Made by a program: the position numbers and the translations under genes | Part shown: positions 1,263 to 54,500 of the stretch, one piece after another | How the letters are laid out: each line of letters opens with the position of its first letter | Numbering within the stretch: the stretch's first letter is position 1 | Assembly (NCBI RefSeq): GCF_036365525.1 | Contig: NC_090419.1 | Coordinates: forward strand, 13,082,001-13,146,000 | Source: Heterodontus francisci | Taxonomy: Eukaryota | Direction: 5' to 3' | DNA length: 64,000 bases | Notes under the pieces: model-generated | Told to the model about the DNA's origin: nothing | Databases searched by the model: none | The model's input: only the letters and a program-made list of their open reading frames with translations

Positions 1263-4200
1263 CGATCAAGTCGGAAATCTGGATATTCATCATTCCAGCT
1301 GTCATGACATCAGTGATCCTGATTCTCTTCTTGGAAGAGATCGGATTCTTCTTTCGGAATATCCGGAGTGCCAAACGCAGGCGTCTGAATCTCTGGATCC
1401 TAGGGATCTATCCGGTGAGACCCCTTCCTCGTCCTCAGTCTCCCCTCCCTCGGTGTCCGCTCCCTCGGTGTCCCCTCCCTCGGTGTCCCCTCCCTCGGTC
1501 TCCCCTGCAGAGTGTCAGCACATTGCTGATGAAGTAGTAATGGGAAATGATGATGAGCAGGGATGCTGGTGAGTTAACATCTCCTCTTCTGCTTCTGTTA
1601 GGTGTTTGCAATGACCTCGCTGATCGGGATGTACATTCCCCGATCGGCCGCCCTCTGCAGCTTCATCGCATCCATGTGAGTATTCACGGCAAATAAAGCT
1701 CTCCCTCGGAGTGAATCCAATGGACCCAAACCCCTTCCCGTTCACTCCCACTGTACACAATCCCAATGGACCCAAACGCCTTCCCGTTCATTCCCACTGT
1801 ACACAATCCCAATGGACCCAAACGCCTTCCCGTTCATTCCCACTGTACACAATCCCAATGGACCCAAACCCCTTCCCATTCACTCCCATTGTACACAATC
1901 CTAATGGACCCAAACCCCTTCCCGTTCACTCCCATTGTACACAATCCCAATGGACCCAAACGCCTTCCCGTTCATTCCCACTGTACACAATCCCAATGGA
2001 CCCAAAACCCTTCCCATTCACTCCCATTGTACACAATCCTAATGGACCCAAACGCCTTCCCATTCATTCCCACTGTACACAATCCCAATGGACCCAAAAC
2101 CCTTCCCATTCACTCCCATTGTACACAATCCTAATGGACCCAAACGCCTTCCCATTCACTCCCACTGTACACAATCCCAATGGACCCAAACGCCTTCCCA
2201 TTCACTCCCACTGTACACAATCCCAATGGACCCAAACGCCTTCCCGTTCACTCCCACTGTACACAATCCCAATGGACCCAAAACCCTTCCCATTCACTCC
2301 CACTGTACACAATCCCAATGGACCCAAACCCCTTCCCATTCACTCCCATTGTACACAATCCTAATGGACCCAAACCCCTTCCCGTTCATTCCCACTGTAC
2401 ACAATCCCAATGGACCCAAACCCCTTCCCGTTCACTCCCACTGTACACAATCCCAACGGACCCAAACCCATTCCCGTTCACTCCCACTGTACACAATCCC
2501 AATGGACCCAAACCCATTCCCGTTCACTCCCACTGTACACAATCCCAACGGACCCAAAACCCTTCCCATTCACTCCCATTGTACACAATCCTAATGGACC
2601 CAAACGCCTTCCCATTCACTCCCACTGTACACAATCCCAATGGACCCAAACGCCTTCCCATTCACTCCCACTGTACACAATCCCAATGGACCCAAACGCC
2701 TTCCCGTTCACTCCCACTGTACACAATCCCAATGGACCCAAAACCCTTCCCATTCACTCCCACTGTACACAATCCCAACGGACCCAAACCCATTCCCGTT
2801 CACTCCCACTGTACACAATCCCAATGGACCCAAACCCCTTCCCGTTCACTCCCATTGTACACAATCCCAACGGACCCAAACCCATTCCCGTTCACTCCCA
2901 CTGTACACAATCCCAATGGACCCAAACCCATTCCCGTTCACTCCCACTGTACACAATCCCAATGGACCCAAACCCCTTCCCCGTTCACTCCCACTGTACA
3001 CAATCCCAACGGACCCAAACCCATTCCCGTTCACTCCCACTGTACACAATCCCAACGGACCCAAACCCATTCCCGTTCACTCCCACTGTACACAATCCCA
3101 ATGGACCCAAACCCCTTCCCATTCACTCCCATTGGACACATTCCTAATGGACCCAAACCCCTTCCCGTTCACTCCCACTGTACACAATCCCAATGGACCC
3201 AAACCCATTCCCGTTCACTCCCACTGTACACAATCCCAACGGACCCAAACCCATTCCCGTTCACTCCCACTGTACACAATCCCAATGGACCCAAACCCAT
3301 TCCCGTTCACTCCCACTGTACACAATCCCAATGGACCCAAACCCCTTCCCGTTCACTCCCATTGGACACATTCCTAATGGACCCAAACCCATTCCCGTTC
3401 ACTCCCACTGTACACAATCCCAACGGACCCAAACCCATTCCCGTTCACTCCCACTGTACACAATCCCAACGGACCCAAACCCATTCCCGTTCACTCCCAC
3501 TGTACACAATCCCAATGGACCCAAACCCATTCCCGTTCACTCCCACTGTACACAATCCCAACGGACCCAAAACCCTTCCCATTCACTCCCATTGTACACA
3601 ATCCTAATGGACCCAAACCCCTTCCCGTTCACTCCCACTGTACACAATCCCAACGGACCCAAACCCCTTCCCATTCACTCCCACTGTACACAATCCCAAT
3701 GGACCCAAACCCCTTCCCATTCACTCCCACTGTACACAATCCCAATGGACCCAAACCCCTTCCCATTCACTCCCACTGTACACAATCCCAATGGACCCAA
3801 ACCCCTTCCCATTCACTCCCACTGTACACAATCCAAATGGACCCAAACCCCTTCCCGTTCACTCCCACTGTACACAATCCCAACGGACCCAAACCCCTTC
3901 CCGTTCAATCCCATTGTACACAATCCAAATGGACCCAAACCCCTCCCCGTTCACTCCCACTGTGCACAATCCCAACGGACCCAAACCCATTCCCGTTCAC
4001 TCCCACTGTACACAATCCCAACGGACCCAAACCCCTTCCCATTCACTCCCATTGGACACAGTCCCAATGGACCCAAACCCCTTCCCGTTCACTCCCACTG
4101 TACACAATCCCAATGGACCCAAACCCCTTCCAGTTCACTCCCACTGTACACAATCCCAATGGACCCAAACCCCTTCCCGTTCAATCCCATTGTACACAAT

Positions 4201-5713
4201 CCAAATGGACCCAAACCCCTTCCCGTTCACTCCCACTGTACACAATCCCAATGGACCCAAACCCCTTCCCGTTCACTCCCATTGTACACAATCCAAATGG
4301 ACCCAAACCCCTTCCCGTTCACTCCCATTGTACACAATCCAAATGGACCCAAACCCCTTCCCGTTCACTCCCACTGTACACAATCCAAATGGACCCAAAC
4401 CCCTTCCCGTTCACTCCCACTGTACACAATCCCAATGGACCCAAACCCCTTCCCGTTCACTCCCATTGTACACAATCCCAATGGACCCAAACCCCTTCCC
4501 GTTCACTCCCACTGTACACAATCCCAATGGACCCAAACCCCTTCCCGTTCACTCCCATTGTACACAATCCCAATGGACCCAAACCCCTTCCCGTTCACTC
4601 CCATTGTACACAATCCCAATGGACCCAAACCCCTTCCCGTTCACTCCCATTGTACACAATCCAAATGGACCCAAACCCCTTCCCGTTCACTCCCACTGTA
4701 CACAATCCCAATGGACCCAAACCCCTTCCCGTTCACTCCCATTGGACACAATCCAAATGGACCCAAACCCCTTCCCGTTCACTCCCATTGTACACAATCC
4801 AAATGGACCCGAACCCCTTCCTGTTCACTCCCACTGTACACAATCCCAATGGACCCAAACTCCTTCCCGTTCACTCCCATTGTACACAATCCAAATGGAC
4901 CCGAACCCCTTCCTGTTCACTCCCACTGTACACAATCCCAATGGACCCAAACTCCTTCCCGTTCACTCCCATTGTACACAATCCCAATGGACCCAAACCC
5001 CTTCCCGTTTGCTCCCACTCTATACAATCCCAATGGACCCAAACCCCTTCCCGTTTGCTCCCACTGTACACAATCCCAATGGACCCAAACCCCTTCCTGT
5101 TCACTCTCACTATATACAATCCCCATGGACCCAAACCCCTTCCCATTCAATCCCATTGTACACAATCCCAATGGACCCAAACCCCTTCCCATTCACTCCC
5201 ATTGTGCCCTGGCACATTCTTGTTCTATAATTCTCCCTCTGCCAGATAAGGTGGGGTCTGAGGCGGTGCCAGCGGGTCCTCTCGAGGGATGTGAATGATG
5301 TGTCTGGCAGGGAGTGCTGAACGCCTCTCCCTGTTCCTACCTGCTCACATCCTTCCATTCCTGTGAACAATGCCACTGTCAAACTGCTCCATTTACTCCC
5401 CAGGCTCGGTTTTATAATCAAGACTCTCTCCTTTTCTCAGCTATCATTCCATTACTCTTTGGAAATTCCTCGGACTGATTACAGACTTCTTTGGTGGGAA
5501 GGTGCGGATGCTGGAACAACTGGCCGGAGAGGAGGTGTCTCCCAATCCTTTCCCGTGTTGTTGCTGCTGCTGCTTCCCGATGATCTCCGTCAACCGGTGA
5601 GTTCCTGCAGAGAGAGGGACGGTGGGAGGGGACAGACTGAGAGAAAGACAGATTGTGAGAGGGAGTGAGGCAGAAAGAGAGAGAGGGAGAAAGAGGGTGA
5701 GAGAGAGGGAGAC

Positions 5714-11549: not shown

Positions 11550-18085
<6,536 letters not shown>

Positions 18086-19999: not shown

Positions 20000-22900
20000 T
20001 TAAAAGTCTTTGTCCCCCTCAGTCACACACAAGCCTCCAAACGCCCCAGCGATGTCACACTGCTCTGCTGAGGGCTCTGACAGCGAGGGTGGCCTCTTGG
20101 AGGGCGAGGGGCCTCGTTCCCGAGCAAGCAGGTTATTTTTCTTCAAAAAACAGGCTTCCTGATAGGGAGGGCAGATGGGAGGTTGGGTGGGTGGAGTATA
20201 AGTGTATTCCTTGCTGGGATCCAGCTGGAGAGAGGGGGCAGAAACACCAGAGTTACGAAACAGAAAACCAAGCACATCTTTCCCGTGTCCATTTGGTGTC
20301 GGCTGTGGCTTGCTGCTGAGTCAGCAGGTGGCGACTTCGAGTTCCCTGTTCCAAAGACGGGAGCAGTACCGAGGGAGTGCCGCACTGCCGGAGGGGCAGT
20401 ACCGAGGGAGCGCCGCACTGTCGGAGGGGCAGCATCGAGGGAGAGCCGCGCTGTCGGAGGGGCAGCATCGAGGGAGAGCCGCGCTGTCGGAGGGGCAGCA
20501 TCGAGGGAGAGCCGCGCTGTCGGAGGGGCAGCATCGAGGGAGTGCCGCGCTGTCGGGAGGAGGCCATTCAGTGAGATTGTGACTGATCTGCAGCCAAACT
20601 TCATATCCAGTCACCATGACAGCAGCTCGCCGCTCTTACCTGTAAAGGGTAGGTCTTGTCCGAGTCGTACGCACTGAGATCGCCACACGCGAGGAAAGGC
20701 ACGATCAGCCTGTTGGGGCCTTCCAGTTGGTTAAAGTCCACATCTTCAGCAAGAGAGGAGGAAAAGAGAGAGAGGTGATAAAGAGGAACTGGTCGAGAAC
20801 CACAGGGCACTGATTTCAGGTGAGAAAGAGCTGGTGTCGAGGGGGGTGGGGGGGGGGGGGGAGCAGCGGGAAGAACAGTATCGCTCTTCGAAAGAGCCAG
20901 CACAGACTCAGATGGGCCGAACAGCCTCTGTACGATCGTACGTGATGGGTTCTCGTGGTTCGGGGGAAGCCGGGAGAGATACAGGAGCGGTGCAGACCCT
21001 GTTCTTACCGTAGGAGTGGTCCAGGAGCGGGTTCGACATGTTGGGCACATACCCCGCGGGGGGCGAGTATCCGCGGCACACCACAAACGCTTCTGCGGAA
21101 GGGAGGGAGAGAAAAAAAAAATAACCAGTCAGCCCTGGCTCCAAGCACCAAATGTCCATTGCAGCTTCTCCCACAACCCCCCCCCACCACTTAATCAGGA
21201 CAATGAGCAAACTATTGCAATAAATCTAGTCCCAGTTCCCATCCCACTGCTTGTTCCCAAATATATCAGCTGCCAGATCTCGGGCGCCATTTCTCGCTGT
21301 GACTTACACGGGAAACACAGCTGCGTCAGGGGCTTAAAGGGTTAAATTACGAGGGACTGTTCGCACAGACTGGGCTCGTGTTCCCTCGAGTGTAGAAGAC
21401 TAAGGGGTGATTGAATCGAGGGGTTTAAGATGATCAAAGGATTCGATCGATATAGTTCATTCTGAAGCTGGGGTCTTAAATCTGAGCAATGGAAACTATG
21501 AAGGTATGAGGGACAAGTTGGCTGTGGTGGATTGGGAAAATAGACAAAGATTTGGCAGTCGACAGGCAATGGTGAGTATTTAAAGAAGTTTTACACGGTT
21601 TACAACAAGTATACATTCCTCGAAGACACAAAAACCCAACAGCAAAAATGAATCAATTGTGGTTAACAAAAGGACTTTAAAGATTGCATTAGATGAAAGG
21701 AATAAGGTCGCTTAAAAAGTGGGAAGCTCGAGGAGTGGGAGCAATTTAGAATCCAGCAAAGGAGGACCAAGAAACTGATAAAGAATGGGGAAGAGAGATT
21801 ATGAATCTAGGCTAGCTAGAAACATAAAGGCGGACTGTAAACGCGTCTGTAGGTGCGTGAAAAGGAAATGATTAGCAAGGACGAATGTGGGTCCATTGCA
21901 GGCGGAGACAGGAGAGTTTGTGCTGGAGAATTGAGGAAATGGCGGAGAGACTGAACAAATACTTTGTGTCTGTCTTCACGGAGGAAGATACAGAAAATCT
22001 CCCAGAAATACCAAGGGACTCGTAAAAATGAGGAACTGAAAGTAATTAGTATTAATAAAGAGGTAGTACTCGAAAAATTAACTGGATTGAAAGTTGATAA
22101 ATCCCCTGGACCAGATGAGCTACATCCCAGAGTGTTGAAGGAGGTAGTTATAGAGATAGTGGATGCATTGGTGGTTATCTTTCAAAATTCTATAGATTCT
22201 GGAAAGTAGCAAATGTAACCCCGCTATTTAAGAAGGGAGGGAGAGAGAAAACGGGGAATTACAGACCTGTTAGTTTGACATCAGTAGTACGGAAAATGTT
22301 AGAATCTATTATAAGGGATGAGATAACTGGACATTTGGAAAATAACGATATGATTGGGCAGAGTCAACACGGATTTGTGAAAGGGAAATCATGTTTGACA
22401 AACTTGTTTGAGTATTTTTGAGGATGTTACTTGTAGCAGAGATAAAGGAGAACCAGTGGCTGTGGTATGTTTGGATTTTCAGATAAGATCCCACACAGGT
22501 TAGCAAAAGATTAGAGCACGTGGGATTGAGGGCTAATATATTGGTATGGATGGAGAATTGGTTCACAGACAGAAAGCAAGAGAGTAGGAATAAATGGATC
22601 ATTCTCAGGATGGCAGGCTGTTACTAGTGGGGTACCGCAAGGATCGGAAGTGGGGCTACAGCTGTTCACGATCTATATCAATGATTTGGACGTGGGGACC
22701 AAATGTAATATTCCCAAATTTGCTGACGACACAAAACTAGGCGGGAATGTGAGTTGTGAGGATGCAAGGAGGCTTCAAGGGGACTTGGACAGGCTAAGTG
22801 AATGGGCAAGAACATGGAAGATGGAATATAATGTGAATAAGTGTGAAGTGATCCACTTTGGTAGGAAAAACAGAAAGAGAGTATTTCTTCAATGGTGAGA

Positions 22901-25900: not shown

Positions 25901-28900
25901 CCCACTCTTCTCTCCCTCAAACTGACTGTAAAATTCACTCATATTATGATCGCTGCTGCCTAGGGGCGCCTTAACTGTGAGGTCATTAATTAATCCTCTC
26001 TTGTCACACAATACCAGGTAGAGTATAGCCTGCGGTCTGGTTGGCTCCAGAACATACTGTTCCAAGAAATTATCCCGAAAACATTCTTCACACAGAGGGG
26101 AGTGGAAATCTGGAACTCTCTCCCCCAGAAAGCTGTCGAGGCCGGGGGTCAATTGGGCAAAATTAGACGCCTCCCTACGATTAAGGCGAGTCTCCTTGAC
26201 ATGCCACAGATTGCCAAGCAGCTGTCAACATAGAGACACTTCCCGCAGCGATTAGACTCTCAGTGACCCTGCGCCGTGCCCGATTACAGCAATTTTACCG
26301 TACGCCCGAACTCTTACCGATGCTGGAGTTACGGCTGCTCCGCGGCTTTGCGCAGGTCACCTCGGAGAAGAAGATTTTCAGCTGCGAGTACAGCAGCGTA
26401 ACGTCCTTCCCGCGGAAGATCTGTCGGAATTGCGAAGCAAGGAGCTTTAAACACCGGCATCAAACAGTTGGGCCAAATGGCCTGTAAAATGTGCCGTAAA
26501 TACTACGTAACCTGCACTTATATAGCAGCTTTAACGCAGTACTGAGGGAGTGCCGCACTGTCGGAGGGGCCATGATAAGATGTTAATTTGCCTGTTGCGA
26601 TGGAGCGGGAGGACGTCAAGCATCCTGGGGCACCAGTCAGACAGGAAGACAAATATCTGGTTGTTCATCAAGGTTTGTGGGATCTTGCCGGGGGGCAAAA
26701 CGCAATCACATTTGCCTCTTTAATGATCCCTCTTTAATTTCACGCCCACCCACCCCCCTGATTGAATGCTCTGCCCACCTCTCTCGCTGTAATCCTTACT
26801 TCCTGGGTTGCAGAGCCTGAGATTATAGTCCGTTCTCAGTTATTGCCCGGTTTTCTGCTGGTCGTTGTTGAACTGGACGAAAGGGCGTGAATTGCCGCAA
26901 ACAAAAAATACTTAAAAATACATCCTTCCCGTCCCCTCCCCAATAAAGATGTTTCAACCAAAGAAACACTGGCCGTAGCAAACATCCCTTAACACCAAAG
27001 AAAGCTGGAGGTGTGTGCACGATGAGTCTGCGCGGACGCCTACCTTTGCTACAAAGGTTCCGCCATTTTTCAGCACGTGGGTGGTGATGTTTAGAGCCTG
27101 GAATGTGAGACAAGCCATATGGTTAACATTTCCCAGGAGCAGATTTATCACCAAAGACCAACACATCACACTTGGAATCCCTGTGGATTACGTCAATGAT
27201 TTGTTCGCTTGAAGAGGGTTAATTTCAAGATGGCTGCCTTTCATTTCCCTTATTTAAAACTGGCTGCCTGCCATTTGCCTAATTTAAAATGGCCACCCTC
27301 CATTTCCTCATATAAATGGCTGCCCACTTACAGATATTGCTGTGCTGTTTTGCAATTGAATGCTCATTCTGAGAGGTTACAACCTATCAGGAAAGACTGA
27401 ACAGGCTGGGACTCTTTTCTCTAGAAAAGAGAAGGCTGAGGGGGTGACCTGATAGAGGTCTTTAAAATGATGAAGGGGGGTTTCGATAGGGTAGACGTAG
27501 AGAAGATGTTTCCACTTGTGGGGGGAGACTAGAACTCGGGGGCCATCAATATAAGACAGTCACTAATAAATCTAATGGGGAATTCAGGAGAAACTCCTTT
27601 CCCCAGAGACTGGTGAGAATGTGTAACTCGCTACCACAGGGAGTGGTTGAGGTGGGTAGTATCGATGTATTTAAGGGGGAAGCTGGATAAACACACGAGG
27701 GAGAAAGGAATAGAAGGATATGGGGATGGGGGGAGATGGAGAGAGGGGTAGGAGGAGGCTCGTGTGCAGCAGGAATGCCAGCACAGAGCAGATGGGCTGA
27801 ATGGCCTGTTTCTGTGCTGGACATTCTATGTTACCCTAAACTACGATGGTCGCTCCCTGTTTCCCGAATCTAAGACAGCTCCAGTACTGGATCCTCGGTG
27901 TTATATGTCCTGCGTTATTTCCGAGTCACATTCTGTCACTAAACTCTGACTTGGGGTCTCACAGAGCCACCATAGAACAAATGTTCACTCTGCTTGTCTG
28001 GTGACAGGACAACATACAAACACTCGTTAATGGTGACTAAGGCTGCTTGAACAGGACTTACCGCTAGCAGGAGCTGGGCCTGAATATACTCATCGATATC
28101 GTGGAGGCCAGTTACTGGAACAGAAGGGGTTTTGAAATAATTACATTCGAGGTCACCATGGATACTGGTAAAAATATCGACATACAAGGGAAGGCAACAA
28201 ACCTCCTGCCTCCTGTCTGCCTTGCAGATCATTCATTCACTCAACTAAGCCACAGCTCAAGAGATTTTCACCCTGTTCTGTCCGAACTGATTCCCTCTAC
28301 ACTGTCCCCATCAAAAACGCCCAGGGCAGGTACAGCACAGGGTTAGATACAGAGTAAAGCTCCCTCTACACTGTCCCCCATCAAACACTCCCAGGACAAG
28401 TACAGCACGGGGGTTAGAAAAAAAAAATGCGGTTGGCTGCTGTCTCATTGGAGGTGCTGACTGCTGATTGCAGCAACGAGCCTCAGCTGAGAGTGCTGGT
28501 GGCAGTTGGAGGTTGCCGAGGTGGAGAGAGGAGCGACACTGAGCAGAGAAAAGCTTCAATAACAATCACCGTGAAAGAGAAGAGACTTTTTGTTGGAAAC
28601 AAGGCTTTGTCCGGAGCTGGGTGCTGAACATCAGTAATTTGCTTTGCTTTGGACTGTTGGGGGAGGAACAAGTGGCCGGAACAACAAGGGGTGGGGCTGC
28701 CAATTCAGCAGGAATCTGTGCTGCTGCAACAAGCACACAGGGAAGCTCCCTCCCCACCCCAATTGCCCAGCCTGGGTCAGCTGAAGCTGCCCAGCTAAAC
28801 AGACGGAAGGGGATAGATAGTGCCTGGGCAGCTTCAGCTGACCCAGGTGAAGACGCCTCCCCCAACCAGAAGACCGGAAGACCTAGTGTGCTGGCAGAGA

Positions 28901-31900
28901 CTGTTTTAAGTGTGCTGTGTGCACCACCTCCGGAAAGCAAGTCATCCCATACAGTCTGTCTTTCCCTCTCCTCTATTCCCTCAGCCTCTCCCCTAACCTG
29001 TTGTTTGTTTGTTTGTTTTTTTATATATATTCAATATCTTCTGTGAATCTTTTGTTATTCGGTTTGCAAGCCTACAATTTGGGGGTGGGTTTAGCTCATG
29101 GTCGTTAGACCCATGGCAAGCCCTTCATCACTGGTGGCGGGGCCCTCTACCACCTATGCAGCTGCAGCCTCTGTGACTGCCCACGCAGCCCCATCACCCT
29201 TTAAATTGATAACATCCAGCCATGGGGTGAAGTGCTATCCCCACCCCAACATGTTCATTGAGGCCTGCGTAAAGGCAATGGCCAAGGTTGTCGGCCCCTC
29301 GGCCGTTGTTGCGGCCTCAAAGATGTATGGGAAGACTGTTTTTTCTGAAGACCGAGTGGGTGGTGTCCCTGGCCCTGAATAAAGGGCTCACTGTGGGTGG
29401 GACTTTCCTGCCAGTGGACCCTCTGGGGGCCACTGCGCAGCGGATAATGCTATCAAACGTCCCGCCCTTCATTCCCAGTGAGCTCCTCCTCCCCCATCTG
29501 CACCATCTGGGGGAGGTGAGGTCGGAGATCACCCCAATCCCGCTCGGTCTTCGGGAGCACAGCCTCTGACATGTCTACTCCTTCCGCCGCCAGCTATTTG
29601 TACAGCTGGCGCGGGAGGAGGTCTTGGAGGACCACTTCAGTGTGGAGTTCCAGGGGACGGCCTACCGTGTCTTCTGGATCTTGGACAGGGCGCGATGCCA
29701 TGTCTGCAAGGGGGTGGGGCATGTTCGTAAGAGCTGCCCCAACTTCCCGGCCGCCAACTCCGGCACTCTGCACCTCCTCCCACTCCCTCCACTCATCCTA
29801 CAGACACTAGACACTGCTCGGTCGGTTCCAGAGGCTGCGGTTTTCACGGCCTCCAACGGGGAGGGGAGTGCCCGCCCGAGTGGAAGGAAGGCGCGGAGGA
29901 AAAATAAACACAGAGAGGCTCGTCCCCTGGACACCGTGACACAACCCGAGCCTGAGCTCAGCCCAAGGCCCGTTCCCAGTGAATCGACCTGTCCCAGGGC
30001 TGGGCTCAGGCCCAGAGTAACTAAAAAAAAGGAGGGTGTGGAGGCAGAGCCCTCTGATGACATGGAGGTCTCTGAGCCTCCATGCCCGAGTGGGAAAAAG
30101 AGGAGAAGGCACCCCTCCATAGAGGTAACACAGGGCCCTGAGGTGCAGGGCCCATCAATTGGAGGGGAGCTGTCTCCTGGTTCAGGTCCCTAGGTTCCCC
30201 CTGCCACCACCACCACCAAGTCTGTAAAGCCTGAGCAGGAGCCTCCCTACCCCTCAAGATGGAGGGGGAGAGGGAGGCCCCAGTACATGAAGCCCCTCTG
30301 GGGGGAGCCAGTGGAGCCCTGCTTGTGGTGGGGGAGCCTCGGGACGTCTCCCATTCTGCCACTGGGTCAGGTGCCCTGAGTGGAGGGGAGGGCGAGGCCC
30401 CAAAGGGGCAGCCCTCCCAGCCAGGAGACACTCGACCCGGTTATAACTGAAAATGCTGCCCCATCTGCTGGGTCTGTGGGCGCTGGCGGGGCAGGAGATG
30501 GCCTCCTCTCTCCGCCTCCGGCTGGATTTCCGGAGTCGGGAACTTCCATCTCCCCTGGAGTGCTCAGTGGCCTGGGGGCGGAGGTGGAGGGGGGTCCTGG
30601 GCCGCTGGTGCCTACAGGCTCCAGTTCCATCCTAGAACCCAGAAAGGACTCCTCCGCCATTGATCCTGGGGGTGGGATTGTGGCGGAGCCAGGACCAGCT
30701 GGCGCAGCCGGGACATCCGCCCCACAGTGTGTGGTGGGTGTGTCGGCCGCTGGCGGTGACGACCCAGAGGAGGATGGGGACTCGGTGTGGGGCACAGAGG
30801 ACGATCTTCATTCCATCGCCAGTGGCGGAGCCCCTCATGCCTCCCACCGAGTCTCCTCTCATCCCCACGGCGGAACTCCGGGATTTCCTCGCCGCATGTG
30901 GGCAGAGTTCACTCCACTCCACACGCGGGCGGGATCGCGTACTGGCACTTTAACAACCGGCTGCTGGAAGACGAGCGATTCCGGGACTTGTTCCGTCGAT
31001 TCTGGGCTGACTGGAGAAGGAAGCAGGGGGGCTTCCCCTCCTTGAGGCTCTGGTGGGATGTGGGCAAGACTCACATCCGTGTCTTTTGTCAGGAGTACGT
31101 GAAGGGGTCGACCAAGAGGCGGGAAGCCGAGATCGGGCGCCTAGAGAGGGAGGTGCTCGACTTGGAGTCCCACCTCGGTCACGCCATCGCAGACCCGGCC
31201 CTGTGGCAGGCGTACAAAGAGAAGAAGGGCGCGCCGAGGGACCTGCAGCTCATGCAGATCCTGGAAGATTTGGACCGCGCCTCACCCTTCTTCTACTCGC
31301 TGGAAAAATGGCGGGGGGTCCGTAAGCAGCTCGTTGAGCTGCCGGCCGACAACGGATCCTCCATCACAGATCCGGAGGGAATGGGCCTCCTGGTCCGTAC
31401 GTATTATAGTGCATTGTTCTCTCCGGATCCGTCCAGCGAGGACGCGAGCAGAGTTTTGTGGGAGGACCTGCCGCAGGTCAGCCCGGAGGGCATCGAAGGA
31501 TTGGAGGCTCCGCTCACATTGGCGGAACTAACCGGCGCCTTCCGCCAGCTCTCGAGGGGCAAATCCCCAGGGCTGGACGGGCTGACTGTGCACTTCCTCA
31601 GGGCGTTCTGGGACGTCCTGGGGGACGATTACGCGCGGGTCCTGGGGGAAAGCCTGGCGACCGGGGAGATGCCCCTCTCGTGGCGCAGGGCGGTCATCAT
31701 CCTGCTGCCGAAGAGGGGCGATCTCCGCCTGCTTAAAAACTGCCGTCCAGTCTCCCTCCTCAGCACGGATTATAAGATCTTTGCCCGGGCTATGTCTACC
31801 CGCCTGGGCTCCGTGCTGGCCTACATGATCCACCCCGACCAGTCCTACACAGTCCCGGGTTCGGTCCATCCAGGACAACATCCACCTGGTCCGGGACCTG

Positions 31901-34900
31901 ATCCATCTTTCCCAGAGGTCTGTCAGTCGCCTTTCTCTCCCTCGATCAGGAGAAGGGGTTCGACAGGGTGGATCACGAATACCTGTTCGGGATTCTGCGC
32001 ACTTTCAGAGTCGGGCCGCATTTTGTGGCCCGGGTCCGACTTTTATACGCGGCCGCAGAGTGTCTAGTCAAGGTTAACGGGTCCTTGACGGCGCTCCTTC
32101 GCTTTGGGAGAGGAGTGCATCAGGGATGTCCCATGTCCGGCCAATTGTATACCATCTGCGTGCAGCCGATCTTGTGCCTGCTTTGCAGGAGGTTGACAGG
32201 ATTGGCTCTGCGCGAGCCGGCCATGCGGGTCGTCCTCTCGGCTTACGCCGATGACGTGCTCCTCACGGTCACAGATCCCGTTGACTTGCGGAGGATGGAC
32301 GACTGCCAGCAGACCTTTTCTGCCGCGTCCTCCGCGAGGATCAATTGGGAGAAATGTTCCGGACTCCTGGTTGGTCAGTGGCGGGTGGACTCCCTGCCGG
32401 AGGAGATGACACCTTTTGCGTGGAGCACCACGCACCTCCTCTATCTGGGAGTCCACCTTAGCCCCACTCAGGAAGCCTGGCCGGCAAACTGGCAGGAGTT
32501 GGAGGCGAAAGTCACCACTTGGCTGAGGTGCTGGACAGGACTGCACAGAGTGCTTTCCTTCAGGGGCCGAGCGCTGGTCATAAACCAACTGGTGTCCTCC
32601 ATGCTGTGGTACCGGTTGGTCACTTTGGCCCCGCCCCCTGCATTTGCCTCCAAGATCCAGAAGAAACTCGTCGATTTCTTCTGGGGCAAGAGGAAACACT
32701 GGGTCTCTGCCGCGGTCCTGAGTCTCCCGATCGAGGAGGGCAGCCAGTCGCTGGTGTGCGTCCGCACCCAGGCTGCGACTCTCCGCCTTCGGACCCTGCA
32801 GAGATACCTGTACGTCGAGCGTCCTCCCAGATGGTGTGCGCTGGCGACGTATTTTTTCCGCCGGGGCACTGCCTTCAAGACAACACGCAGCTCCCGGTGG
32901 AGTCCGTTAGCCGCGCCTCTCTGAGGGAGTTGCCTGTCTTTTACCGGGATTTATTCAGAGTCTGGAACATGGACGCCTCCAGTCAGGGCGCTCCCCTGCC
33001 AGCGGAGGAGAGCACCTCGGCTATCTGGGTGGCTGGCTCCGGGGATGGACCGGTGGGCGGAGGAGTAGCTGAAGCCCCCGGGATGCCCCTCACTGCGGGT
33101 GACGAGGGGGCTCGGGAGTGCGGCGCGCTCCCGGCCGAGCTGACCCCTACTTGGCCGGAACTGCTCATCAGACCTAGGCCCCGAAACCCTCCTTGGGAGC
33201 CGGTCCCGCACAACCCGAGCCGCCTCTCGGAAATGCCCTCCGTGCCATTCCAATCGGCCCGGAGGAGTTTCCTGTACGGGCTGCTCCTGCACACTCTCCA
33301 CTTCCTCGCCCTCGTCAGCCGGCAGGACACGCCCTGGCGGTCCGCGTTGCCATCTGACGGCGAGGGGAAGCCCTGATGGAGGTCTCTCTTCGCAGGAGTC
33401 CTCCCCCTTTACACTGGGGACCTGGGGTGGATGGTGTTGCACAGGGCAGTCCCGTGCAATAGACTTTTAAGTAGGTTCACGGACTCCCAGGCCACCTGTA
33501 ATTTCTGCGGCCTGGAAGAGTCCGTGTTCCATGTATATATGGAGTGTGCGAGTTTTCAGCCCCTCTTTCAGTATTTGAAGGGGCTGCTCCTCAAGTTCTG
33601 GCTGCACTTCAGTCCTACGCTCCTGATCTTTGGGCACCCGGTGCGTAGGGGCGTGGGCCGGGAGGAGGATCTCCTCGTCGGTCTGCTCCTGGGCCTGGCC
33701 AAGGTGGCAATTCACAGGTCCAGGTTGCAGGTCGTTGGGGAGTCCGTCCTCCCCGATTGCCTGCCCCTCTTCCGCGGTTACGTTCGCGCCCGGGTGTCCC
33801 TGGAGAGGGAGCATGCGGTGTCCGCCGGTACGCTTGAGGCCTTCCGCGACCGGGAGTGCATCGTCGACGCCGAGAATGGCATTTTAATTTGAGTTTTTTG
33901 TTGATTTATCTGTTTTTAATAAAGTTATTTTAAAAATATGTGTATAAAGGGGGCCTGAGGAATAAAGGCCCCCTCGACATAAAGAAAAAAAACGGGGTTA
34001 GATACAGAGTAAAGTTCCCTCTACACTGTCCCAACAATATGCCTCTGTCCGAAACACGTCCTTCATACAATTTTCTCTTCTCCCATCTCTCTGAGTGCAA
34101 ACTGACGCCCACTGGAAACCATCCCGGGACTTGCACTTAAATATCTATCAAAACACGCGGTCACACCCCGACACTGTGGGGTACACAGATCAACGGTAAC
34201 CATACCATCTGGCGCTCCGTCACAAACCACCAAGTCTGCGGCCTGACCCTCAAAATGCTTGATGATCTCCTGGGCTGTCGAAACCTACGAGACAGGAAGA
34301 GCTAAGTGGCCACAGTGTTTCGTGCGATGTGGGCCTCGCTGGCTAGGCCAGCATTTGTTGTCCATCCCGAATTGTCTTTAAGAAGGTGGTGGTGAGCTGC
34401 CTTCTTGAACCGCTACAGCCCGCGTGGGGTAGGTACACCCACAGTGCCGTTAGGGAGGGAGTTCCAGGATTTTGACCCAGCGACAGTGAAGGAACGGCCG
34501 ATATAGTTGCAGGTCAGGATGGTGTGTGGCTGGGAGGGGAACCTGCAGGTGCTGGTGTTCCCGTGCGTCTGCTGCCCTCGTCCTTCTAGGTGGTAGAAGT
34601 CGCGGGTTTGGGCGGCGCTGTCAAAGGAGCCTTGGCGAGTTGCTGCAGTGCATCTTGTAGATGGTGCTCACTGCTGCCACTGTGTGTCGGTGGTGGAGGG
34701 AGGGAGGGCATGTTTAAGCTGGTGGGAGTGATAACTCTCCACTTGGTTTCCCCAGATCTGTTGCACTGACATCCCAGAACCGGTACCTGAAAGGGGTGGT
34801 TTTCCTAGCCCCCCGACTGGCTGGTTGAGTTATGAGCTCGTCCGGGCCAATCCCGGGCATGTCCTGCCTTGGAATGCCAGGGCGGTGGGGCTACCACTGT

Positions 34901-42269: not shown

Positions 42270-42810
42270 AAGACTTGCATTTACGTAGCGCCTTTCCTGC
42301 CCAGCGGACATCCCCAAGTGCTTTACGGCCAATTGAAGTGCGGTCGCTGTCGTAATGCGGGAAACGCGACTTCCGATTTGTGCACAGCAAGCTCCCACAA
42401 ACAGCAATGTGATAATGACCCAGATTGTCCGTTTTTTTTTGTGATGTTGCTTGTGGGATAAATACTGGCCCCAGGACACCGGTGAGAACTCCCCCGCCAC
42501 CACCACTGTTCTTCCAATAGTGGCCCTGGGATCTTTTACGTCGACCTGGGAGGGCAGATGGGGCCTTGTTTTAACATCTCGTCTGAAAGACTGCACTTCC
42601 GACGGTGCGGCTCCCTAAGTACTGTCCCCTCTGGCAGTGCGGCGCTCCCTAAGTACTGACCCTCCGACAGTGTGGCGCACCCTCAGTACTGACCCTCCGA
42701 CAGTGCGGTGCTCCCTCAGTACTGACCCTCCGACAGTGTGGCGCTCCTTCAGTACTGCACGGGAGTGTCAGCCTGGATTTCGTGCTCAAGTCCCGAAGTG
42801 GGACAAGCTG
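42270..42810 (-). mobile_element. DeuSINE (SacSINE1-like) with a short 33-bp expansion
   Basis: Reverse complement of the Deu-domain body and its ..AAATGCAAGTCTTT tail. Confidence 0.75.
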
Positions 42811-50264: not shown

Positions 50265-50632
50265 AGGGTTAGATACAGAGTAAAGCTCCCTCTACACTGT
50301 CCCCCATCAAACACTCCCCAGGACAGGTACAGCACGGGGTTAGATACAGAGTAAAGCTCCCTCTACACTGTCCCCCATCAAACACTCCCAGGACAGGTAC
50401 AGCACGGGGGTTAGATACAGAGTAAAGCTCCCTCTACACTGTCCCCATTAAACACTCCCAGGACAGGTACAGTACGGGGTTAGATACAGAGTAAAGCTCC
50501 CTCTACACTGTCCCCCATCAAACACTCCCAGGACAGGTACAGTACGGGGTTAGATACAGAGTAAAGCTCCCTCTACACTGTCCCCCATCAAACACTCCCA
50601 GGACAGGTACAGCACGGGGTTAGATACAGTGT
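50265..50632 (-). repeat. 72-bp minisatellite, ~5 copies
   Basis: Same family as 17190-17846, in reverse orientation. Confidence 0.92.
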
Positions 50633-51488
50633 AAAAGTTACTTATTGCTGCCTCAACAATACTGTAAATTGTGATAATTCCAATTTCTACACTAACCTTC
50701 TTTGAGTGAAATTGATAAATTGTGTTGATGTCTTGGTAATGTTGTGCTGTGGATCTGAACTTTTCCTCTCCTTGCTTATGCTGTTAATCTACATCACTTA
50801 AATCTGTGATTTTTGCTTGGAATATATCTCAGTCAAACTACAATAACCTCACTATCTTACACTGCTTAAGGGGCAAGTTCAGTGTGCTAAGACACCTGAT
50901 CCTATTTTATTGCAGGGTGGAGAGCTGCCTTCTTGAACCGCTGCAGTCCATGTGGGGTAGGTACACCTACAGTGATGTTAGGAAGGGAGTTCCACGATTT
51001 TGACCCAGCGACAGTGAAGGAACGGCGATATAGTTCCAAGTCAGGATGGTGTGTGATTTGGAGGGGAACTTGCAGGTGGTGATGTTCTCATGCATCTATT
51101 GCCCTTGTCCTTCTCGGTGGTGGAGGTCGCGGGTTTGGAAGGAGCCTTGGTGCGTTGCTGCAGTGCATCTTGTAGATGGTACACACTGCTGCCACTGTGC
51201 GTCGGTGGTGGAGGGAGTAAATGTTTGTAGATGGGGTGCCAATCAAGCTGGCTGCTTTGTCCTGGATGGTGTCGAGCTTCTTGAGTGTTGTTGGAGCTGC
51301 ACCCATTCAGGCAAGTGGAGAGTGTTCCATCACACTCCTGACTTGTACCTTGTAGATGGTGGACAGGCTTTGGGGAGTCAGGAGGCGAGGCTGACTGACA
51401 GTAACACCTTGGTTAAAATGAATAGAATTTTCTGGTGAATTAACGAGACTGACCTTTACGAGTGACCTTTCCATCCTCGATCACTAAA

Positions 51489-51528: not shown

Positions 51529-54500
51529 CTGTAAACAAAAGTATGAAACAGGTTGAAGACGTAGCTTGATAAATTACAACAAAAAACCAGAGCCGTCAGA
51601 GAACGAGGGAACAGATCAGTCACAACAAAGAAAAGTATCTCACCTCTTGTATATTTTTGTCACCAGGTACAGAGTTATCACCAAGCCGAGAACTCCTGCA
51701 ATAACTCCAACAGCACAGACAATGGTCCCAGTGTCAGGCAGTACAGGAGGCTGATCTGTTCAAAACAATCAGGGCAGCAAATTATATCTTGGTTTCTGTA
51801 GTGGGTAGTTATTAATCCAGTATCTCAGCCCAAATGGCCAAAACAGAAACTCTGCCTCCATAAGCAGCAGTGACTGTGTTTTGCATTGCATGTGTACAGT
51901 GGTCTGGGATGTCCCACTGGAAGAAAAAGCAAAAAGATGGATGTGCTTTTCGAAGCGCCTATCATCACCTCCAGACACCATAAAGCATTTCACAGCCAAT
52001 CAGGTACTTTTGAAGTGCTGTACATCACTGTTGTAATGTAGAAAACGCCAGCAGCCAATTTACGCACAGCAAGCTCCCACAAACAGCAATGTGATAATGA
52101 TGATAATCTAGGTTTTCTTTGTGATGTTGACTGAGTGAGAAATATTGGCCTCAGGACACCAGGAAGAACATCTCCCTCAGCTCTTAGTGCTATGGCATCT
52201 TTTCCTCTGTTAACAATACATCTGAAAGACAGCAGATCTGACAGTGCAACACTCCCTCAGTACTGACCCTGCAACTGAGCATTCCGTCAGCACTGACCCT
52301 CCGACAGTGCGGCACTCCCTCAGTACTGACCCTCTGACAGTGCAGCGCTCCCTCAGTACTGACCCTCCAACAGTGCAGCACTCCCTCAGCACTGACCCTC
52401 CGACAGTGCGGCACTCCCTCAGTACTGACCCTCTGACAGTGCGGCGCTCCCTCAGTACTGACCCTGCAACTGAGCATTCCGTCAGCACTGACCCTCCGAC
52501 AGTGCGGCACTCCCTCAGTACTGACCCTCCAACAGTGCAGCACTCCCTCAGTACTGACCCTCCAACAGTGCAGCACTCCCTCAGTACTGACCCTCCAACA
52601 GTGCAGCGCTCCCTCAGTACTGACCCTCCAACAGTGCAGCACTCCCTCAGAACTGACCCTCTGACAGTGCGGCACTCCCTCTTGTACTGACCCTCCGACA
52701 GTGCGGCACTCCCTCAGTACTGACCCTCCGACAGTGCGGCTCTCCCTCAGTACTGACCCTCCAACAGTGCAGCACTCCCTCAGTACTGACCCTCCGACAG
52801 TGCAGCGCTCCCTCAGTACTGACCCTCCGACAGTGCAGTGCTCCCTCAGTACTGACCCTCCGACAGTGCAGCGCTCCCTCAGCACTGACCCTCCGACAGT
52901 GCGGCACTCCCTCAGTACTGCCCCTCCGACAACACACTGAGCCATAGCTGACACACAAGGACTGCGATGAGACGTTAAAATTGCAAGTTGACAGGATATT
53001 CAACTGGGCTGAGACCCGGGGCTGGTCCTGTCCTCGTCCAACGTTCATACATGTAGTCACTGGATTTGGGGGCGGGGCGGGTAGAGGCAGGAATCCTGGC
53101 TGATCATTTCCCCTTCCCTAATGAGTAGTATTGACGCCAAATGTAATGCCCCCTATGCTGCAGCTCACTGAGACCACACTGCATGAGTAAACAACCTGCG
53201 CACTTTTGCTTTCTATAATTCAGAGACACATTGAGCAGGCCCTTTATATATTGCTCCATTGAAAGAACTTGCTATCAAATTTCTGATTAATTATAATGGA
53301 CCTAAAGGTTTGCTTTCTGATAGTACTGCTTTGTGGGACTGAAACAACCTCGGGGGAGGCTTTAAATTGAATTTATAGCATCATACGAGATTGATTGCAA
53401 CATATGATTGAATATTATTGCAGGTTTTCGAGCTGCAGTCTGAAAATCCCAGGTGTCAGATCTCTCTCTGTCTGGGATGGCCGGTTTTACACACGCTGAG
53501 CACTGCGTAACCTAGTTTTTTGATACTGTTGATTAATAAAGTGATTTTTGGTGATGACAGCCCAAGTTTTCCCTCGGGAGACTGATGCTGTGTTTCGCAA
53601 CTACAGGACAGTGTGAACTGAGGATACCGGGTGCAGCTCAGTGTGTGTCAGTATTTACAGGGGGATCCCCCGGGGGAGTGTGTCAGTATTTACAGGGGGA
53701 TCCCCGGGGGAGTGTGTCAGTATTTACAGGGGGGTCCCCGGGGGAGTGTGTCAGTATTCACAGGGGGGTCCCCGGGGGAGTGTGTCAGTATTTACAGGGG
53801 GTCCCTGGGGAATGTGTCAGTATTTACAGGGGGTCCATGGGGAGTGTGTCAGTATTTACAGGGAATCCCCGGGGAGTGTGTCAGTATTTACAGGGGGTCC
53901 CCGGGGGAGTGTGTCAGTATTTACAGGGGGTCCCGGGGGAGTGTGTCAGTATTTACAGGGGTTCCCCGGGGAGTGTGTCAGTATGTAGAGGGGGTCCCTG
54001 GGGAGTGTGTCAGTATTTACAGGGGATCCCCCGTGAATGTGTCATTATTTACAGTGGGGACACCGGGGAGTGTGTCAGTATTTCAGGGGTTTCCCGGGAG
54101 TGTGTATTTACTGGGGGACCCGAGGGAGTGTGCCAGTATTTACAGGGGGTCTTCCACACAGAGAAGTTCGAAAATCTCTGGTGTGAACACCTGATCCTCT
54201 GTATAATTCTTGTCAACCTTTAAATGACGTCCACAGTAACTTAACACCTAACCTACGGTATGTTACATACCCAACAAAACAGTCAGTGGTTTCTCGAGAC
54301 TCATATGAGCTACTTGGCAGCTGTACGTGTCCCCATCATGTGGATCAATCCTGATGTACTTTAAGATGTTAAATGTCCAGTCCTGCTCAACCACTGTTTG
54401 TGATGAATTAACTAGCCCAGTGAATCGCCTCCCATTGATTTGGAAGGTAATGTCGATTTCGAACGGGTAGAATTTTTCTGCGTAACAGTACAGGGTGTTT

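Follow-up and report, generated by a model that had tools for sequence, protein, structure and literature searches.

A Tx1-clade retrotransposon family of Heterodontus francisci that inserts into a dispersed 70–72-bp minisatellite

INTRODUCTION

Among the long interspersed nuclear elements (LINEs), the Tx1 clade comprises several families with an established target, namely Tx1L in Tx1D, Keno (U2), Kibi and Koshi (microsatellites) and Tx1-Mar (Mariner), and satellite-targeting families are marked 'Sat' in the legend of Fig. 3 of Kojima 2015 (PMC4494074). Here, we describe a family of this clade found through a 64,000-nucleotide stretch of the Heterodontus francisci genome (contig NC_090419.1, positions 13,082,001 to 13,146,000), in the following called the window. 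The window element is a dead, decayed copy of a Tx1-clade LINE inside a repeat with a unit of 70–72 bp, and there is hardly any doubt that the family to which it belongs inserts site-specifically at GTACAGCA^CGGGGTTAGATAC of this repeat.

Tx1L of Xenopus laevis resembles the present family in its clade, in 50% identity of ORF2 (open reading frame 2) and in its insertion into a multicopy sequence. While the target of Tx1L is the nonautonomous piggyBac element Tx1D (PMC4494074), the family described here uses a dispersed tandem repeat, the copies of which have unrelated flanks. Keno, Kibi, Koshi and Tx1-Mar share the clade and the habit, and tandem insertion is mentioned in the same article (PMC4494074). 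The families of Kojima 2015 have different targets, the word shark does not occur in the examined text of that article, and the names of the satellite-targeting families are given only in a figure and in supplements (PMC4494074). R1Bm, TRAS1 and SART1 are likewise site-specific elements with an APE (apurinic/apyrimidinic) endonuclease but belong to the R1 clade; R1Bm has an endonuclease loop two residues shorter than that of L1 and a short in vitro consensus (PMC1950540, PMC1919474). In R2Bm, 5′ target sequence is linked to full-length insertion, as proposed here for the present family, and upstream rRNA sequence on its RNA is noted as required for this (PMC6895275). R2 differs, however, in its restriction-like endonuclease, its 28S rDNA target and its extra sequence, which is upstream target left by a ribozyme, whereas the leader of the present family copies the downstream side.

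RESULTS

The family joins the repeat at one phase genome-wide

The initial annotation of the window had proposed that the family targets this minisatellite and had suggested beforehand a comparison of the downstream flanks of other 3′ ends. Among the 29 best other 3′-end matches, which include three pairs that look like duplicates, 23 continue into the repeat at the same phase, three into another element copy and three into unrelated DNA. An exact 26-letter 3′-end pattern occurs 1418 times genome-wide, and its combination with GGTTAGA 2–32 nt downstream gives 699 matches for these 1418 ends (about 49% by this strict measure, 2 of 100 listed rows being double counts), where about 2 would be expected from the frequency of GGTTAGA in 200 kb (20 arbitrarily placed 10-kb stretches). 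Since the repeat makes up as little as 30 of 200,000 bases in 20 arbitrary 10-kb stretches of the genome, the insertion of the window copy into it is not due to chance.

At its other end, the element starts with a 7-nt leader of the form YGGG(G/A)TT. An exact pattern for this 5′ end occurs 696 times genome-wide, 481 times (69%) directly after CAGYAY of the repeat and 159 times after an A-run and a pyrimidine, which places 640 of 696 (92%) at the same phase; the pattern requires the leader by construction, and 56 ends fall outside both groups. All 16 A-run cases that were fetched, mostly from chromosome interiors, are in or near the repeat or element tails, in one of them (L246) with about 250 nt of unique sequence between. 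By the definition of Kojima 2015, under which more than 20% of flanks are of one sequence type with 5′-truncated copies included, the family is target-specific. The unoccupied site, counted in one exact form, is present 4307 times, mostly near contig ends among the listed occurrences. The repeat and the full-length copies are concentrated within about 20 Mb of the contig ends in C1–C4, often unequally between the two ends.

Other identities of the target were considered and rejected. None of the 3′ ends genome-wide joins the telomere repeat (TTAGGG)n, arrays of which may be under-assembled, and a telomere-targeting identity like that of TRAS1 or SART1 was ruled out on this ground, although the target site contains GGGTTAG. 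The target shows no sign of being part of a larger transposon such as Tx1D as judged from the three arrays in the window, with no genome-wide search made: the flanks of the occupied array are single-copy and those at the ends of the other two are unrelated. As to an RNA gene as target, Rfam gave no match in the window. Two off-target copies (L105 and L169) lie at the identical site of another interspersed repeat, a sequence similar to which is found at 34432–34455 of the window; a second hot spot was rejected with only one direct junction of this kind genome-wide.

Full-length copies are found on target, truncated copies also elsewhere

To classify both flanks, the list of 3′ ends was followed in genome order up to the 100th entry, regardless of flank, which gave a sample limited to the four largest contigs (C1–C4). 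Thirty-five of these ends belong to 34 full-length elements and 64 to truncated copies, while one has no visible 5′ end. The full-length elements are joined directly to CAGCAC in 28 of 34 cases and stand behind an A-run within the repeat or behind another copy in the remaining six, two of which (L168 and L192) reproduce the window structure of target piece, A-run and leader; a plain unrelated left flank was seen in none of the 34. The 64 truncated copies comprise 19 with the repeat to their left, two with an A-run, 25 that are off target with a duplication (23 detected by script and two by eye) and 18 that are unclassed. The 19 on-target copies end at many different points, often with an 8–14-bp duplication. 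Off-target insertion hence separates the two classes (0/34 full-length versus 25/64 truncated, Fisher p = 4e-6), also within 22.5 Mb of the contig ends, where the numbers are small (0/34 versus 7/35, p = 0.011), and truncated copies at the target differ little in length from those elsewhere (median 419 versus 334, p = 0.08). Targeting is leaky, as truncated copies are often off target with duplications of their own. The initial proposal of a minisatellite-targeting family is thus carried by the genome-wide and both-flank counts, but specificity is incomplete, with at least 25 of 64 truncated copies off target.

An intact copy encodes an APE endonuclease and a Tx1L-like reverse transcriptase

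Three of 20 long loci contain an open ORF2 of 1252 codons from stop to stop, and one of them, L070, also has an open ORF1, which measures 681 aa between stops, next to an ORF2 of 1245 aa. Its ORF2 matches Exo_endo_phos, the APE endonuclease (E 6.8e-15), and RVT_1 (E 2.4e-37), so that an intact copy with its endonuclease, absent from the window, has been recovered as the initial annotation had suggested. The best full-length named match is Xenopus Tx1L (YTX2_XENLA, P0006), over whole ORF2. In a reverse transcriptase tree of 28 rows, 27 of them picked by hand from 120 listed matches, with neither named Keno, Kibi and Dewa rows nor an L1 outgroup, the element pairs with a stingray protein within a 100/100 clade of Tx1L, turtle and sturgeon sequences. 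Judged by its sequence, the element belongs to the Tx1 clade and is Tx1L-like, in line with its first assignment.

The modelled L070 endonuclease (mean predicted local distance difference test (pLDDT) score 93) has the L1-EN fold, with human L1-EN as its best match (template modelling score 0.88). Its hairpin between the anchor T and S measures seven residues, compared with 11 in Tx1L (PMC1950540), and reads WRSGGGG in eight of nine copies and WGSGGGG in L070; it is also modelled with the lowest confidence (pLDDT 65 for residues 191–200). The minor groove is where this hairpin loop inserts, and L1 variants with a shortened or deleted loop had lower activity and changed specificity (PMC1950540).

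Many family copies are 97–99% identical to L070, compared with 92% DNA identity for the ORF2 remnant in the window, which indicates a young family and an older window copy. The marks of target-primed reverse transcription, i.e. poly(A), 5′ truncation and duplications, are all present. At least four different 5′ untranslated regions (UTRs; in L070, L151, L188, L200 and the window at 28435–29112) are combined with a common leader and coding region, which suggests repeated replacement of the 5′ end. As to a ribozyme in the 5′ region of L070, Rfam gave two chance-level matches only.

An element-encoded leader may help to complete full-length copies

The leader resembles the right half of the target, and the letters in which it departs from the target (T, A) are seen repeatedly with particular 5′-UTR variants. 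As leader variants follow the 5′-UTR subfamilies, the leader is encoded by the element. The junctions of full-length copies are nearly blunt, CAGCAC being followed by the leader without the 8–16-bp duplication of truncated on-target copies. The explanation that we consider probable is that of a young Tx1-clade family inserting at one site by target-primed reverse transcription, with the leader aiding full-length completion. That the leader does help to complete copies at the target is our inference, towards which we lean with some reserve. Site, two junction types, off-target insertions and carried repeat pieces are the directly observed parts of this explanation; the individual steps are inferred.

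In such a process, the APE endonuclease would nick the bottom strand across from A^C, favouring the target but tolerating a short core of about (C)MA^SRG, and the poly(A) tail would be where reverse transcription starts. A copy that stops early would join the overhang of a staggered cut, giving a duplication of mostly 8–16 bp on or off target. In contrast, a copy that reaches the 5′ end of the RNA would present the complement of YGGG(G/A)TT, which could pair with the target overhang and yield the near-blunt junction. As every insertion or abortive poly(A)-only event would restore A^CGGGG, tandem copies and A-scars would accumulate. Finally, read-through RNA of on-target donors would end within the repeat, and off-target copies would in this way plant repeat pieces.

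Several loci show further forms of 5′ junction. In L246 (G000:C33:18281500-18290800) and L247 (G000:C1:18522500-18531800), unique stretches of about 70–250 nt that end in an A-run at the target site lie upstream of the leader, and the stretch in L246 itself starts with the leader of the element; they resemble host RNA ends that were copied into the target, perhaps with a template switch to the leader. Short copies at L094, L194, L062 (its first copy) and in the left flank of L168 retain the first 10–13 letters of the element fused directly to a 3′ fragment, through internal deletion or through a switch to the leader during copying. L061 and L218 contain inverted parts and target-like junctions, as expected from twin priming.

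A different account, which we regard as possible though clearly less probable, is that the endonuclease alone sets the site, that off-target full-length copies are removed by selection (promoter, long homology) and that the leader is a functionless relic of an old duplication. The Tx1L endonuclease is indeed sequence-specific in vitro (PMC1950540). Moreover, a number of observations weigh against leader-aided completion at one site. None of the 34 full-length copies is more than 22.5 Mb away from a contig end, a zone in which the repeat is concentrated, and every one of the 29 interior copies is truncated. Off-target copies also show a little more divergence (median 92.9% versus 96%), so that selection or age could explain the absence of full-length copies elsewhere. 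Copies of 1.3–6.5 kb are rare in both classes, and selection on length is thus possible. L199, a copy complete except for 23 nt, is flanked by unrelated DNA on the left and by the repeat on the right, with no duplication found. The off-target sites share the loose core of about (C)MA^SRG, which the target matches too, the A at −1 being fixed by the alignment of the sites. When contigs of four runs were compared with 27600–34400 of the window, no listed piece joined both unique flanks as an empty allele would, and joints that skip the element arise from the many copies of the repeat. The restriction of the sample to four contigs and the leader-dependent 5′-end count belong here as well. Selection, on the other hand, has to contend with the asymmetry that persists in the terminal regions and with off-target copies 96–99.6% identical to L070, and it leaves unexplained why full-length junctions lack the duplication of truncated on-target copies. 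We thus retain leader-aided completion as the preferred explanation.

It is very unlikely that a few insertions were multiplied at the DNA level together with their arrays, by segmental duplication or subtelomeric exchange. Duplicates do occur (L014/L018, L020/L021, L024/L025, L243/L244 and L201/L202), as do tandem blocks in L076. However, only two pairs among the 35 full-length ends have a common downstream flank (at least 93% over 150 bp, several ends having little unmasked flank), tails, truncation points and 5′-UTR variants differ between copies, and the outer flanks of the window's target array are single-copy.

Off-target copies carry pieces of the target

For L1, 3′ transduction moves downstream flank to new sites and leaves a second poly(A) inside the duplication. 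The present family is alike in both respects, except that the flank moved by the element is its own target. Of the 25 off-target copies, 13 have the element, its poly(A), 10–290 nt of repeat and a second poly(A) inside the duplication, and L080, from the similarity-ranked set, is a further case. Repeat and second poly(A) inside the duplication show that the RNA of the element sometimes includes downstream repeat. Such read-through appears plausible because AATAAA-type signals sit in hairpin loops directly before the tail. The element plants pieces of its target, up to several units long, at new places.

As off-target copies often carry repeat, 3′ flanks alone overstate targeting, and they would be weak proof against the notion that the repeat is a mere passenger, as part of the element's 3′ end or by read-through; this notion is hardly tenable, however, since the repeat continues in register to the left of full-length copies (481/696) and of 19 truncated copies with differing ends, and flanks the window copy on both sides, the left flanks having already refuted it.

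More tentatively, and in our view rather doubtfully, the relaxed short-loop endonuclease might open many sites, of which only the minisatellite permits a leader-completed, transposition-competent full-length copy, while truncated misses spread the minisatellite. If true, much of the dispersed target would be of the element's own making, with the minisatellite as a landing pad spread by a retrotransposon.

Both element and repeat are represented in contigs labelled as organisms B, C and D. Pieces that cross the 3′ junction have the same phase in B and C, with only about 30 target-side letters, at the edge of the 31-letter rule, and organism E provides a loose end of tail, target piece and second A-run. 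The pairing of family and target in other organisms is suggestive only.

The window copy is decayed and has a compound 5′ junction

The initial annotation had the element interrupt a copy of a 72-bp repeat that resumes in register, which the window sequence confirms with a unit of 70–72 bp, and it had placed two further arrays at 17190–17846 and 50265–50632, which are real with slightly shifted borders. All features are listed below.

28292..28407, + strand: target array, left half, comprising some 1.6 repeat units of 70–72 bp and ending GTACAGCA
28407..28418, + strand: duplicated target stretch, left copy (ACGGGGGTTAGA); same compound junction in L168 and L192
28419..28427, + strand: A-run in front of the element, likely left by a poly(A)-only event or by a 5′-extended RNA
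28428..28434, + strand: 5′ leader of the element, TGCGGTT as a variant form of YGGG[G/A]TT, similar to the target's right half
28435..29112, + strand: 5′ UTR (84% to intact copy L070 over 28433–30898)
29113..30897, + strand: ORF1 remnant, frameshifted, with a weak zinc knuckle, its end lost to deletion (tblastn to P0002)
30897..30898, + strand: junction of an internal deletion of about 920 bp; APE endonuclease gone
30898..33892, + strand: ORF2 remnant, residues ~230–1245, frameshifted, with reverse transcriptase and C-terminal zinc finger
33893..33980, + strand: 3′ UTR with a GC hairpin (33949–33973), the loop of which contains AATAAA
33981..33992, + strand: A-rich tail
33992..34032, + strand: the target's right half, continuing in register from ACGGGGTTAGATAC... 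to CTACACTGTCCC
17197..17847, − strand: unoccupied target-repeat array, 9.1 units, period 72
50266..50635, + strand: unoccupied target-repeat array, 5.3 units, period 70

The four stretches of repeat make up about 1.9% of the window, close to the 2% estimated at first. The deletion at 30897/30898 removed the end of ORF1 and residues 1–229 of ORF2 with the endonuclease, and it appears private, being seen in none of 20 copies chosen for 5′ similarity. The ORF2 piece still matches RVT_1 (E 2.4e-20), while zf-RVT (E 2.6e-4) and, in the ORF1 piece, zf-CCHC (E 0.031) are below the cut-off; the ORF1 protein P0002 has no Pfam match. A second family hairpin, present in the fold of the L070 3′ end, is missing from the 3′ UTR. 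A common donor of the window copy and L213, which both have the TGCGGTT leader, was considered; L213 is no closer than other copies (85–90%) and keeps the endonuclease.

The left flank terminates GTACAGCACGGGGGTTAGA at 28418 and is followed by the A-run to 28427; downstream of the tail, the repeat restarts as (A)CGGGGTTAGATACAGAGTAAAG and reaches 34032. The duplication of about 11 bp noticed at first, with a difference of one G, is real (28407–28418 with five G versus 33992–34002 with four). However, it is no signature of full-length copies in this family. As these join almost blunt via the leader, and as A-run and leader lie here between duplication and element body, the duplication belongs to a compound junction and probably stems from an earlier poly(A)-only event or from 5′-extended RNA. 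In the first case, a poly(A)-only event would have made the duplication and regenerated the site, which the element then entered near-blunt; in the second, a single insertion would have copied a 5′-extended RNA. We incline slightly to two events, because A-scars are frequent, accompanied by target pieces of widely differing length, and one lies within the element's own leader (L247). In L024 and L025, an A-run and about 36 nt of target have themselves been amplified as a tandem array with units of about 42 bp.

DISCUSSION

Literature searches, including four repeat motifs, returned no description of this family or its target, most subscription journals, Repbase and Dfam lying outside their scope and the supplements of PMC4494074 possibly listing satellite-targeting families; neither a leader nor an asymmetry of full-length and truncated copies is mentioned in the examined parts of PMC4494074. 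The target is apparently undescribed, while target-specific Tx1 elements as such are well known.

The family bears on two open questions, namely how LINEs complete their 5′ junction and how APE endonucleases change targets. It offers at least 1418 natural insertions, in which one enzyme produced near-blunt full-length copies with leader versus truncated copies with duplication. It is also a close relative of the biochemically studied Tx1L, and its hairpin is by nature short and rich in glycine, like those that lowered activity when introduced into L1 by engineering. As a vertebrate APE LINE that is site-specific and retains intact copies, the family is further relevant to targeted gene insertion. 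Its transduction of the target constitutes a route for the spread of a minisatellite.

Other repeats in the window

A second dispersed minisatellite of 33 bp occupies 1–733, 15106–15497, 20363–20556, 42598–42757 and 52240–52931 of the window, and a broken element copy elsewhere (L228) is followed by this 33-bp repeat. Further arrays have units of 46 bp (1717–5205) and 32 bp (53643–54151).

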